Shown one piece after another: positions 9,926 through 35,532 of a stretch of DNA of 64,000 nt. Origin of the DNA: a phage; sequence record PZ171035.1; one strand, 5' to 3'. How positions within the stretch are numbered: position 1 is the first letter of the stretch; the number at the start of each line of letters is the position of its first letter. Below the pieces are notes generated by a model. It searched no databases. It was not told the DNA's origin and saw nothing but the letters and a program-made list of their open reading frames with translations. A program made the position numbers and the translations under genes.

Positions 9926-10240
9926 ATGGCAAGCATCGACTCCTTGACTGTATGTAATTCACGTCAAGCTCGTAACTTTATTATCCGTGCCCTGAAAGCA
10001 GGTAACGTACCGTTCCTGACTTCATCACCTGGCATGGGTAAATCTGCAATCATTCGTTCTATTGCAGAAGAATTTGGTATGAAGTTAATTGACCACCGTC
10101 TATCTACTTCTGCCCCGGAAGACCTGTCTGGCTTACCTTTCCGTAATGGTGACCGTGCAGAGTTTATTCCATTCGCTGACTTATTCCCCATTGAGGGAGA
10201 CGAAGTACCAGAAGGCTATAATGGCTGGCTCTTATTCCTT
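9926..10240 (+). CDS. MoxR-like AAA+ ATPase, 5' exon (Walker A through start of Walker B)
   Basis: Walker A SSPGMGKS; ORF runs into a stop right after ...GWLLFL(N); the rest of the ATPase resumes about 880 bp downstream. Confidence 0.6.
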
Positions 10241-11121
10241 AACTAACGGGGCTTCATGAGAGCAATCTCATGTCGAAAGTTACCTAAACAGGGAACCTCT
10301 TCTAAACTGGTTGGCTCAAGTGTATACTTGAGTTTTAATCAATTGGAGACAATCCTGTGCTAAATAATGAAATTTGGAAAGATGTGCCCGGCTTACCGTA
10401 TGAAGTTTCCAACTTTGGCGTAGTACGCCGAAAGGAAGGAAAGTATAAATACAAAAACAGGACACATATAAAACCGTATCTTAATAACAAAGGATACTAC
10501 TGCGTGAACCTGTACATGAATAGTAAAGTGTACAAATACCAAGTTCACCGTCTGGTAGGATTAGCCTTTGTACCAAACCCTAATAACTATCCTGTTATTA
10601 ATCATATAGATGGAAACCCTCTTAATAACCACGAGAGTAACCTGGAATGGTGTACCCAGTCTCATAACATGAAACATGCTTGGGATACTGGACTGCAAAC
10701 AAACAGGCACGCTAATGCTAGTAATAAAAATCGTGGAGGCTCCTCCAAATATGTAGGCGTATCCTGGAGTGAGCAAAGACAAAGATGGTGTGCCCATATA
10801 AGGGTTAACAAGAAATCTATTGGTTTGGGACGTTACAAAACAGAGGAAGAAGCTGCTAAAGCTTACGACTCCTACGTAACTAATAACAATCTTACACAGA
10901 TTGGGTACAGTACCAATTTCATTTAAACGCCAAACGACTATCGAAAACACACAGAAATGTGGAAGTGAGTAGAGTAGGGTGCAAGCCAATGGCACTCGAA
11001 ACGGTAACAGCCCTAGCAATAGGGCTTTGATATAGTCTCCTCTGCATGGTGACATGCAGCAGTCAGTATTCACTGAGTGTACTGACGGCATTAGTAGTTG
11101 CGAACTAATGTGAAGATAATG
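10241..11121 (+). mobile_element. candidate self-splicing (group I-type) intron carrying an HNH-AP2 homing endonuclease; boundaries approximate
   Basis: Insertion separates two halves of one ATPase; 5' exon ends in T, insertion ends in G; joining 10239|11122 gives ...LLFL-DEFNSAKKEVV... restoring Walker B; no RBS before the downstream half. Confidence 0.5.
10357..10926 (+). CDS. HNH homing endonuclease with NUMOD4-like N-terminus and AP2 DNA-binding domain
   Basis: GTG start with GGAGA RBS; EIWKDVPGLPYEVSNFGVVR (NUMOD4-like), HRLVGLAFVPNP...NHIDGNPLNNHESNLEW...HN (HNH), KYVGVSWSEQRQRWCAHIRV...GRYKTEEEAAKAYD (AP2). Confidence 0.8.
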   Translation: MLNNEIWKDVPGLPYEVSNFGVVRRKEGKYKYKNRTHIKPYLNNKGYYCVNLYMNSKVYKYQVHRLVGLAFVPNPNNYPVINHIDGNPLNNHESNLEWCTQSHNMKHAWDTGLQTNRHANASNKNRGGSSKYVGVSWSEQRQRWCAHIRVNKKSIGLGRYKTEEEAAKAYDSYVTNNNLTQIGYSTNFI

Positions 11122-11860
11122 CGATGAGTTTAACTCAGCTAAGAAAGAAGTAGTAGCTGCTGCATACAAACTAATTCTCGACCGTATGACTGGTCAGAAA
11201 AAACTCCATCCTAATGTGATGATTGTCTGTGCTGGTAACAAAGCTACCGACCGTGCCATTGTTAACCCACTGGGTACTGCAATGCAGTCTCGTGTGATTC
11301 ACTTCGAGATGGAACTCAACTTCGACATCTTTGTTGAAGACGTAATGATTCCTCAGCAATGGGATGAACGTCTGGTTGCATTCTTACATGCTAACCCAGG
11401 TTATCTGCATGACTTCGACCCAGCCCATAAGAACAAAACATTCTGTTGTCCACGTACTTGGGACTTTGTTAACAAAGACCTCAAGAATCAGCCGGAAGGT
11501 GCTCTGCCTGATGAAGATTCTATCTACTATGCAGGTCACGTTACTGCCGGTAAAGCTACAGAATTTGTTCAGTTTACTCAGGTATATAATCGTATCATTA
11601 CGATTGAGAAGGTAGTCAAAGACCCACTGGGCTGTGCATTACCGGAAGATAACAACCTGTGCTGGGCTACCGTTAACCATCTGGCTAACAAAACTACTGA
11701 AGAGAATTTCGCTGAAGTTCTTCAGTACATTGAACGCTTTAAAACGTTCACCCATAAGATTCTGTACTTCCGCACAGTAGGCAAAGCATTACCAGAAATT
11801 CAGGCTACACCTGAATGGCGTAAGGCTGCTGCTAATGTCTCTCGTTACATTCACGGGTAA
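11122..11860 (+). CDS. MoxR-like AAA+ ATPase, 3' exon
   Basis: In-frame sequence DEFNSAKKEVVAAAYKLILDRM...NVMIVCAGN (Walker B DE, sensor region) precedes the first ATG at 11186; fits the continuation of the 9926-10240 ATPase. Confidence 0.5.
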
Positions 11861-13043
11861 TCACAAAATGAACCAATTTCCTCAGCACACACTTAGTGAT
11901 GAACAACTCATGCGTGAGTATGACCGTATTCAGGCCCAAGCCTTCCTGGGCAAGTCTGCTGCGTTCTTTGGTTCATTACTGTGTAGCCTTAAATTCTCAT
12001 GGAAACGTGAGGATTGTCCCACTGCATGTACCGATGGGATAGAACTCCATTTCAACCCAGATTTCTTTATCTGGATGTGTCCAGATGCAAGAGAAACAGT
12101 GTTAATGCACGAATTATGGCATGTGGCATATCTACATGACATCCGTCGTGGAAGCCGTGACCCAGAAGTCTGGAACCAGGCATGTGACCACTTCATTAAC
12201 CTTCAGTTAGAAGAGGATGGTTATAAGTTCACTGGTATTGATGAAGGCATTTGCAAAGACCCCCAATATAAAGGATGGGTCGAAGAAGACATCTACGATG
12301 ACCTGATGAAGAACCCTCAGAAAAGGCAGAAGCCGTCAGGGGGTGCTGGAGCAGGTCTTGCTGGCGACATGAAATCCCCCACTTCGGGGCAGTCCCAGGG
12401 TGCTGTTGTCAACAACGTAGTACGTGCAATGCAGAGCCAGAAGATGGCAGGTGGAACAATGCCCGGTAAAGGTGCTGGTCGTATGGAAGAGGTTATTACC
12501 CAATTCCTTAAACCAGTGGTTCCATGGCAGGAAGTCCTTATGAACTTCTTTACCGACATTGATGACACTCATTATACGTGGGCCAGACCTAACCGTCGTT
12601 ACACTGACATCTATCTACCTTCTTTAGAAGATGATGAAGGGCGTTTACGACACTTAGCCTACTTTGAGGATGTATCTGGTTCCATCAGTAGTGCTGACTC
12701 TCTGCGTTTTAACTCAGAGGTTGCCTACGTTAAGAGCCAGTTTAATCCTAAGAAGATGTCATTAATTACCTTCGACGATATTATCCAAGAAGAGATAGAC
12801 ATCACTGAAGAAGATACTTTTGAGGAGATTAAGATTACTGGTCGTGGTGGTACAAACCTGGAACCAGTGCGTGATTGGATTATTAAGAATAAGCCAACCG
12901 CTGCAATCATATTCTCCGATATGTATGTTCGTCCAATGGAAGAATTGCCATTTGATATTCCTATCATCTGGTGTGTTCTGAATAATCCCAATGCTACCGT
13001 ACCTTTTGGGGAGGTAGTTCATATCCCTAAAGGAATGAAATAA
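11835..13043 (+). CDS. putative metallopeptidase-like/VWA-type protein (partner of MoxR ATPase)
   Basis: 402 aa with HELWH (HExxH) motif; MoxR ATPases are typically paired with such proteins; start could instead be 11868. Confidence 0.4.
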   Translation: MSLVTFTGNHKMNQFPQHTLSDEQLMREYDRIQAQAFLGKSAAFFGSLLCSLKFSWKREDCPTACTDGIELHFNPDFFIWMCPDARETVLMHELWHVAYLHDIRRGSRDPEVWNQACDHFINLQLEEDGYKFTGIDEGICKDPQYKGWVEEDIYDDLMKNPQKRQKPSGGAGAGLAGDMKSPTSGQSQGAVVNNVVRAMQSQKMAGGTMPGKGAGRMEEVITQFLKPVVPWQEVLMNFFTDIDDTHYTWARPNRRYTDIYLPSLEDDEGRLRHLAYFEDVSGSISSADSLRFNSEVAYVKSQFNPKKMSLITFDDIIQEEIDITEEDTFEEIKITGRGGTNLEPVRDWIIKNKPTAAIIFSDMYVRPMEELPFDIPIIWCVLNNPNATVPFGEVVHIPKGMK

Positions 13044-34095: not shown

Positions 34096-34657
34096 GCCGG
34101 TGTAGGTGGAGAAGACGGCAGGGTAGCTACCTGTGCTTAGTGTACTCTTTGATAGTTTTCGTAAGCGATTATGCGGTTTTTTAGAAACGAACCAATAACA
34201 TAAATGCAAACGATGATGTTGTTCTGATGGCGGCGTAATAGCCTGTAAGTCAGCAAGGTCTTCCGACTCCTTGTAAGCAAATTCGGCGCAGTGGCCCGCT
34301 GTGATTAATAATGGGCACACAACAGGTAAGAGCATTTAGGCTACTGAGAAATCATCCGAGGCAATCAGACCTATCTTCTGTTAAGTGCTCTTTCCGTTGT
34401 GGTGAATGCGCAGGCTGATGCGCAGTGGGACGTGGCTGACTCACGAGGATGGCTCAAGCGAATAAGCAAGCTCGACGCCGCCGAATAAGCGCCTTATGCC
34501 GGAGATCAGCACCGGCCACCACAACAAGTCCAGACGATATCTGAGTGACTATAAAAACAGATGGAGCCAGGTGGAATCCCTGGCAACTAATTCCGGTGTA
34601 GGTACTAGTGTCGTGCACGGCATGAGCATTCTGGTTCGAGTCCAGACGCCGGAACCA
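34096..34657 (+). ncRNA. candidate tmRNA-like RNA (tag-like reading frame at 34206-34241; limits very tentative)
   Basis: GCA AAC GAT GAT GTT GTT CTG ATG GCG GCG TAA TAG = ANDDVVLMAA + two stops, AU-rich upstream, resembles tmRNA resume/tag regions; 3' T-arm-acceptor-ACCA at 34630-34657; no G3-U70 pair found. Confidence 0.3.
34592..34657 (+). tRNA. tRNA-like minihelix element A (acceptor stem + T-arm + A + CCA, truncated body)
   Basis: 5' TCCGGTG pairs with 3' CGCCGGA; T-arm TCTGG-TTCGAGT-CCAGA; encoded ACCA; only 66 nt, no canonical D/anticodon arms. Confidence 0.35.
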
Positions 34658-35366: not shown

Positions 35367-35442
35367 TACCCGGTAGGCTTAGTGGTAAAGCCCCACTAGT
35401 AAACCAACTAGGACGCAGGTTCGAATCCTGTCCGGGTAGCCA
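35367..35442 (+). tRNA. tRNA-like gene C (76 nt; canonical acceptor, D and T arms; non-canonical anticodon loop)
   Basis: Acceptor TACCCGG/CCGGGTA, D-arm GGCT-TAGTGGTAA-AGCC, T-arm GCAGG-TTCGAAT-CCTGT, G + CCA; anticodon arm folds only as CTAGT/ACTAG with 6-nt loop or CTAG/CTAG with 8-nt loop. Confidence 0.5.
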
Positions 35443-35447
35443 TTTAT

Positions 35448-35532
35448 GCCCACTTAGCTCAGTGGTAGAGCGCAGGAAAGCTTCGAGAGAACAAGGTGTC
35501 TGTGGTCACTGGTTCAAATCCAGTAGTGGGTA
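35448..35532 (+). tRNA. tRNA-like gene D (85 nt; canonical acceptor, D and T arms; anticodon region not foldable by eye)
   Basis: Acceptor GCCCACT/AGTGGGT, D-arm GCTC-AGTGGTA-GAGC, T-arm ACTGG-TTCAAAT-CCAGT; 35-nt segment between D and T arms. Confidence 0.45.

Follow-up and report, generated by a model that had tools for sequence, protein, structure and literature searches.

The locus addressed here raises the question why a phage gene for an AAA+ ATPase breaks off within its Walker B motif and resumes in the same frame beyond an insertion that carries a homing endonuclease gene. It lies at positions 9926-11860 of a 64,000-nucleotide stretch of phage DNA (record PZ171035.1); this whole stretch is referred to as the window, and coordinates are those of the window unless another genome is named. 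A preliminary description of this DNA had proposed a candidate group I intron, with gene fission by a free-standing homing endonuclease gene as the fallback. Our analysis indicates, with a probability of roughly 0.9, that positions 10240-11121 are a group I intron (subgroup IA2) that is both mobile and self-splicing, related to the T4 td intron and situated in the Walker B codons of an N4 gp24-like AAA+ ATPase gene. The proposed combination of a group I intron with an HNH-AP2 endonuclease is borne out by homology to td, an IA2 structure with covariation, presence/absence polymorphism and codon selection. In BLAST searches the source region was ~93% identical to Gamaleyavirus phages (59 matching records), which are G7C-like, N4-related members of the family Schitoviridae. 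The interrupted gene encodes the N4 gp24-like AAA+ ATPase, and the phage is a Gamaleyavirus-type coliphage. The locus is composed as follows (here and below a slash within a sequence marks a junction or insertion point).

9926..10239, + strand: ATPase exon 1, from Met1 to the first two bases of Leu105, with Walker A GMGKS (open reading frame list and collinearity with ECBP1)
10240..11121, + strand: predicted group I intron, 882 nt, IA2, starting with UAACUAAC and ending in AUAAUG, terminal G at 11121
10357..10926, + strand: putative homing endonuclease gene in the P6 loop, 189 amino acids, NUMOD4 + HNH_3 + AP2 (Pfam, PHROG, I-HmuI match)
11122..11860, + strand: ATPase exon 2, beginning C/GAU GAG with the Walker B Asp-Glu

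The boundaries of the insertion were set by comparison with an uninterrupted gene. In phage ECBP1 the ATPase gene is intron-less; it aligns to the window up to 10240 and again from 11123 with zero bases in between, so that the insertion measures exactly 882 bp. This alignment with an intron-less orthologue, a comparison already suggested in the preliminary description, fixed the insertion site and was collinear across the gap. About 50 of the 59 matching Gamaleyavirus records lack exactly these 882 bp, and U1G and NAN33P5 are the sole matching records with the same intron (96-97% identity). The intron-less junction reads TTCCTT/GATGAG and the predicted ECBP1-type target sequence is CTCCTGTTCCTTGATGAGTTCAAC. 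The splice point was placed at 10239/11122, since this is the sole phase with a U ending the exon and a G ending the intron; the junction bases are indeed T at 10239 and G at 11121, as had been claimed. The phase given by the raw BLAST boundaries, 10240/11123, was discarded, as it would give an intron ending in C. Joining at 10239/11122 restores Walker B LLFLDE, again as proposed before, and a protein of 350 amino acids, equal in length to that of ECBP1. It turns the CTT (Leu) of the intron-less allele into CTC (Leu), a synonymous change. The predicted ligated exons read ...GGCTCTTATTCCT/CGATGAGTTTAAC..., i.e. ...UUCCU/CGAUGAG..., and the predicted junction peptide of the spliced ATPase is GWLLFLDEFNSAK.

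Small differences between alleles were seen next to the junction. Intron-bearing alleles have Leu TTA/TTG at -9..-7 and C at exon 2 position +1, compared to CTG and T, respectively, in ECBP1, pSb-1 and PW8, the three alleles without this intron that were compared. These exon markers may be co-conversion tracts or endonuclease-protective changes.

The coding sequence on both sides bears on the question whether the insertion is spliced out. According to the sequence and the open reading frame (ORF) list, the ATPase ORF 9926-10246 ends in ...NGWLLFLN followed by a stop, and the downstream half is in the ATPase frame, reading DEFNSAKKEVVAAAYKLILDRM from 11123; both observations agree with the preliminary description. 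Furthermore, the downstream half was rightly said to have no ribosome-binding site in front of it: its sole in-frame start is ATG 11186 (Met127), which is not preceded by a Shine-Dalgarno sequence. The Walker B Asp-Glu is absent from both unspliced ORFs. The 22 codons from the junction to Met127 are not translatable on their own, the only start being at 11186, and among the intron-bearing phages they show synonymous to nonsynonymous ratios of 6:1 and 5:0. Exon 2 of NAN33P5, for example, starts with GAC GAA TTC compared to GAT GAG TTT in the window. The conceptual spliced products are all exactly 350 amino acids long.

Judged from its sequence, the insert 10240-11121 is a group I intron of the T4 td type. 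The presence of P7.1 and P7.2 places it in subgroup IA, and close similarity to td in IA2. The predicted helices are:

10236-10239 with 10248-10251, + strand: P1, exon UCCU with guide GGGG, U10239-G10248 wobble
10255..10272, + strand: P2, CAUGAGA-GCAA-UCUCAUG with GNRA loop (minimum free energy (MFE) fold; all 7 pairs covary)
10279..10284 with 11003-11008, + strand: P3, GUUACC with GGUAAC (100% paired; double changes in 3/6 pairs)
10289-93 with 10353-57, + strand: P4, CAGGG with UCCUG (MFE fold, covariation)
10297-300 with 10345-48, + strand: P5, CUCU with GGAG
10313-21 with 10326-34, + strand: P5a (MFE fold; A10319G in U1G and NAN33P5 keeps a G-U pair)
10374-10377 with 10930-10933, + strand: P6, proposed, UUGG with CCAA, 5' strand within the endonuclease ORF, by analogy to td UAGG with CCUA
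10936-40 with 11033-37, + strand: P7, GACUA with UAGUC, invariant (11033-37 with J8/7)
10950-61, + strand: P7.1 (MFE fold, covariation)
10977-97, + strand: P7.2 (MFE fold, covariation)
11009-26, + strand: P8 (MFE fold, covariation)
11042-59, + strand: P9 (MFE fold, covariation)
11062-68 with 11080-86, + strand: P9.1, peripheral (MFE fold)
11089-95 with 11104-10, + strand: P9.2, peripheral (MFE fold)

U10239, the final base of exon 1, is the predicted 5' splice site. The P1 loop of 8 nt, UAACUAAC, holds the in-frame stop UAA at 10244-10246. The P4-P5-P5a domain spans 10289..10357 and the 3' half of the catalytic core 10930..11059, and the 3' tail after P9.2 is UGAAGAUAAUG, ending in G11121 and homologous to td CUGAACAUAAUG. 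MFE folding independently recovered P2, P4, P5a, P7, P7.1, P7.2, P8, P9, P9.1 and P9.2, with z-scores of -2.0 and -3.0 for the two ribozyme halves folded separately. The assignment of P6, a short helix, to 10374-77 with 10930-33 is tentative and based on analogy; a matching P6 pair was found in each relative, such as UAGGC with GCCUA in Vibrio phage phi 1 and UGGAG with CUCCA in Vibrio phage JA-1.

Nine related introns were aligned with MAFFT after removal of their ORFs, and base pairs were counted for P2, P3, P4, P7, P7.1, P7.2, P8 and P9. The MAFFT alignment was unreliable across the distant introns in P1, P5, P5a, P9.1 and P9.2, which were therefore left outside the formal count and are backed by inspection of each sequence and MFE folding. 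Paired cells amounted to 94.4%, against 28-40% in slid-partner controls. Changes on both sides were found in 26 of 47 pairs, and the observed covariation was reached by none of 500 shuffles. The same picture emerged at short evolutionary distance. Comparison of the window with U1G and NAN33P5 revealed 9 substituted positions outside the ORF, all 9 in loops or pairing-preserving. Among these are three changes from one GNRA loop to another (GCAA to GUAA in P2 and P8, GAAA to GCAA in P7.1), a compensatory A-U to G-C change in P7.1 (CACA paired with UGUG to CGCA paired with UGCG) and an A-U to G-U change in P5a. Since the ribozyme changes among the three near-identical copies all preserve structure, the RNA structure of the intron is under current selection.

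Homology to the T4 td intron was found at both ends. In BLAST searches the 3' core matched hundreds of phage group I introns, and window 11029-11060 (J8/7-P7-P9) was 97% identical to T4 td over 32 nt. The 5' ends read GGGU/UAAUUGAGGCCU... in T4 td and UCCU/UAACUAACGGGG... (UAAC...) in the window; the 3' ends read ...CUGAACAUAAUG/C (...GAACAUAAUG/C) and ...GUGAAGAUAAUG/C (...GAAGAUAAUG/C), respectively, with the tail AUAAUG/C identical in both. Like the window intron, T4 td (IA2, encoding I-TevI) has the P1-P9.2 architecture with P7.1/P7.2 and an ORF in the P6 loop. Both have a stop codon at the very start of the intron and the same P1 geometry, with an 8-nt loop and the guide 3 nt upstream of P2. 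The two differ in other respects. Overall ribozyme identity is only about 54-62%, the P5a hairpin is extra in the window intron, and the host gene is thymidylate synthase for td and an AAA+ ATPase, at its Walker B site, here. The td endonuclease is of the GIY-YIG type whereas the one described here is NUMOD4-HNH-AP2, and its ORF begins within P4, compared to a start deep in the P6 loop in td.

The guide occupies a fixed place, 2-3 nt upstream of P2, while its sequence varies across the five insertion sites described below and pairs with its own 5' exon. These exon and guide pairs are UCCU with GGGG in the window, UCGU with GCGA in a second intron of NAN33P5, UGCU with GGCA in JA-1, Klebsiella phage Pylas and Escherichia phage Pollock, and UUGGGU with GCCUGA in T4 td.

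The ORF in the P6 loop was analyzed for its likely role in mobility. As the preliminary description had stated, 10357-10926 is a GTG-start HNH-AP2 ORF equipped with a ribosome-binding site. The latter is GGAG, 8 nt upstream, and all three Pfam domains were matched above their gathering scores (NUMOD4 41 bits, HNH_3 34.5 bits, AP2 40 bits). The product falls in PHROG HNH families. I-HmuI is the HNH endonuclease encoded by the DNA-polymerase intron of Bacillus phage SPO1 and acts by nicking. The N-terminal 108 residues of the window protein align with I-HmuI (PDB 1U3E, E=6e-12), and the HNH motif (..VHRLV..NHIDGN..NLEW..SHN) is intact. The SPO1 element thus shares the homologous NUMOD4 + HNH half, and each of the two phage group I introns interrupts a conserved enzyme motif, whereas the C-terminal DNA-binding module is AP2 here and the host gene and host phylum differ. 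The ORF is under purifying selection, with synonymous to nonsynonymous ratios of 17:5 and 24:6 along its entire length in comparison with U1G and NAN33P5. The activity and target of the endonuclease are predictions.

The ORF start is embedded in the ribozyme. Position 10357, where the GTG begins, is also the final base of P4 and pairs with C10289, and the 3' strand of P5 is made up of the Shine-Dalgarno GGAG (10345-48). At the same start position, AUG is found in the pSb-1 intron (with a U-A P4 pair) and GUG in phi 1. The conserved core GUGCUAAAU, present in td too, doubles as the endonuclease Met-Leu-Asn. With Shine-Dalgarno and GTG lying within P5 and P4, ribosome loading and ribozyme folding would be mutually exclusive. 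No sigma-70 promoter and no terminator were found on the sense strand of the intron. On the minus strand, a 202-amino-acid ORF at 10561-11169 overlaps the endonuclease gene and the ribozyme core, and in pSb-1 an annotated minus-strand hypothetical protein, gp64 (1480-1656), covers the ribozyme core of that phage. Both minus-strand ORFs are probably spurious.

These data can be combined in the following model. The ATPase gene would be transcribed as a single RNA, and ribosomes on exon 1 would halt at the UAA 10244-10246 in the P1 loop. The intron would fold, with P1 setting the U10239-G10248 wobble at the active site formed by P3-P8 and the G-binding pocket of P7. An external guanosine would attack after U10239, and the freed 3'-OH of exon 1 would then attack after G11121, giving a ligated mRNA that encodes the complete 350-amino-acid ATPase with LLFL-DE restored. 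In mixed infections, the I-HmuI-like HNH-AP2 endonuclease would nick or cut intron-less alleles near TTCCTT/GATGAG, and recombinational repair would copy the intron into the cut allele (homing). On any one RNA molecule, endonuclease translation and ribozyme folding are expected to exclude each other.

Several points weigh against splicing. We infer splicing itself from an intact ribozyme under selection and from purifying selection on exon 2 codons that have no start of their own. P1 is short, with 4 pairs of which two are G-U, P6 has just 4-5 bp with its 5' strand inside the ORF, and no P10 pairing of the P1 loop with CGAUGAG of exon 2 was convincing. A search of the whole window with RF00028 at E<=1 gave no match. 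In the Rfam comparison named in the preliminary description, the intron scored 22.2 bits (E=0.007), below the RF00028 gathering threshold of 50 bits, and the T4 td control also failed, at 36.9 bits. Splicing of T4 td is experimentally proven, and the low RF00028 score is therefore not evidence against an intron but a weakness of the model, which is uninformative for phage introns with an ORF in the P6 loop. The weak local match forces the 5' half of the model into the endonuclease ORF, and the P6-loop ORF is taken to split the ribozyme for the RF00028 model in both the window intron and td. A further point comes from the same genus. G7C-like phages carry endonuclease-bearing inserts of ~800 bp in the essential genes g16 and g39, in some isolates only. 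The g16 (RNA polymerase II) intron splices, as found by reverse transcription PCR, and the intron-like insertion in g39 (DNA polymerase) of 10Gb does not, resulting in a split polymerase (bioRxiv 10.1101/542787). On that account, a structured insert is no proof of splicing. A splicing-dead relic, with the ATPase made as two polypeptides (amino acids 1-106 and a fragment from the Met at 11186) or inactive, would fit the g39 precedent, the short P1, the missing P10 and the sub-threshold Rfam score. Such a relic is nevertheless very unlikely: neither fragment would hold the Walker B Asp-Glu, the second would have to start without a Shine-Dalgarno sequence, the codons between junction and Met127 are still under purifying selection although untranslatable when unspliced, every ribozyme substitution in the three copies keeps the structure, including a compensatory pair, and the core elements are all intact and td-like.

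Plain gene fission, i.e. insertion of a free-standing homing endonuclease gene without a ribozyme, draws on the fact that free-standing HNH genes are common in these phages, for example U1G gp29 and pSb-1 gp66 directly downstream of the ATPase gene. However, the ~310 nt of non-coding flanks form a complete td-type core with covariation and T4 td homology, none of which would be expected of a free-standing endonuclease gene, and this contradicts the fallback and makes it exceedingly improbable. An intron that splices but is no longer mobile, its endonuclease being inactive or serving as a maturase-like helper or AP2 DNA-binding regulator, is unlikely. It would agree with the carriage of the intron by three genomes only and with the lack of an exact copy in IMG/VR, where exact-pattern scans gave 0 matches for the P2-P4 segment and 1 match for the P7.2 segment. 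Moreover, the ORF overlaps core helices P4-P6, so that RNA constraint could explain part of its conservation. Yet the HNH motif aligns intact with catalytic I-HmuI, the synonymous excess of 17:5 to 24:6 extends along the whole ORF, and patchy occurrence among 93%-identical phages is what active homing predicts.

The predicted intron of the window has relatives elsewhere in the same gene. Across N4-like phages (Schitoviridae), td-like introns were found at five sites of the N4 gp24-like ATPase gene:

Walker A site, window equivalent 10036/37: Vibrio phage JA-1
EDL/SG site, window equivalent 10125/26: Shigella phage pSb-1, Escherichia phage PW8, Vibrio phage phi 1
Walker B site, 10239/40: this phage, U1G and NAN33P5 only
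AAA/YK site, window equivalent 11164/65: JA-1, Klebsiella phage Pylas, Escherichia phage Pollock
CPR/TW site, window equivalent 11455/56: NAN33P5

These introns lie in the same host gene, belong to one td-like ribozyme family and encode endonucleases of the NUMOD4-HNH(-AP2) family, whereas insertion sites and guides differ. Endonucleases at different sites share 35-45% identity and the ribozymes 57-72%. NAN33P5 and JA-1 each have two introns in the ATPase gene. The second intron of NAN33P5 (865 nt, 1886-2750) lies in exon 2 at CPR/TWDF and has its own NUMOD4-HNH-AP2 ORF. Intron one of JA-1 (~560-1520) splits the Walker A codons GSPGV/GKS and is the only one in this set to pass the Rfam threshold, at 52.2 bits; intron two (1861-2582) is at AAA/YK, and JA1_0033 is an internal exon of the JA-1 ATPase and not a gene. 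The EDL/SGLP intron occupies 627-1494 in pSb-1 and PW8, and a diverged copy is found at 1656-2538 in phi 1, a Vibrio Pacinivirus. Its presence in Gamaleyaviruses and a Pacinivirus indicates that the same homing site is used across genera. A 79-nt stretch of the window intron (10923-11001, P6'-P7-P7.1-P7.2) is 90% identical to the pSb-1 intron (1291-1369), compared to ~70% for the remaining ribozyme, a contrast that suggests recombination (mosaicism) between Walker B-site and EDL/SG-site introns. Within the window, no further td-like cores and no paralogous HNH-AP2 genes were found.

It might be speculated, as a tentative proposal with odds somewhat worse than even, that the ATPase gene is an intron hotspot with multiple sites, five or more, each of them in a conserved motif (Walker A and B among them), in three Schitoviridae lineages. 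It would have been colonised by one radiating td-like lineage that retargets by means of its 3-6-nt guide and the specificity of the HNH-AP2 protein. In several members (Walker B and EDL/SG sites), P4 and P5 contain the start codon (GUG/AUG, which covaries with the base it pairs with in P4) and the Shine-Dalgarno sequence, and this arrangement would act as a mutually exclusive switch between endonuclease translation and ribozyme folding.

It is textbook knowledge that conserved phage genes can harbor group I introns with homing endonucleases. An intron in the JA-1 ATPase gene has been suggested before (Fouts et al. 2013, PMC3670811), the N4-like phage pVa5 carries a td intron (PMC5746245), and the record of Pylas annotates the gene as 'ATPase split by intron'. 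In the record of U1G the gene appears as two 'ATPase' fragments, and the one hint of an intron is an automatic 'Phage intron' note attached to the HNH gene. The g16 and g39 inserts of G7C-like phages lie in genes other than the ATPase gene, and that preprint (bioRxiv 10.1101/542787), in the text consulted, describes 22 variable loci that do not include the ATPase insert. No description of a Gamaleyavirus Walker B intron was found in the literature. As the known ATPase introns are at other sites and that of Pylas is already annotated, the Walker B intron adds a member and an insertion site, the Walker B codons of an AAA+ ATPase being a new site for td-type introns, and not a new kind of element. 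The annotation of the ATPase should accordingly become one spliced protein of 350 amino acids, join(9926..10239,11122..11860), and the minus-strand ORF that covers the ribozyme should be removed. With five occupied sites in a single gene, these related introns form a natural series that could be used for studying the retargeting of introns and endonucleases and the coupling between endonuclease translation and ribozyme folding.

The nature of the interrupted protein was evaluated as well. Its earlier designation as MoxR-like finds little backing. Pfam AAA was matched with 27 bits, AAA_5 with 17.5 bits against a cutoff of 22, and among PDB entries a midasin AAA domain came out best (E=3e-4). 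NCBIfam gave no match for the ATPase or the endonuclease. The VWA-like/DUF2201 gene adjoining the ATPase gene downstream was also considered for the MoxR-type assignment:

11868..13043, + strand: downstream partner gene, DUF2201 metallopeptidase + VWA-like domain (Pfam), N4 gp25-like (Pollock annotation)

In the window phage this gene begins 8 nt past the ATPase stop (11860-11868), with no HNH gene in between. U1G (gp29) and pSb-1 (gp66) have an additional free-standing HNH endonuclease gene between the ATPase and VWA/metallopeptidase genes.

At gathering threshold, Rfam returned two tRNAs only for the whole window, at 35367-35439 and 35448-35532. ARAGORN calls just the first of these, with its anticodon undetermined. 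Upstream of the tRNA genes (34135-34287), sub-threshold tmRNA-like Rfam matches of 31 and 18.5 bits were observed.

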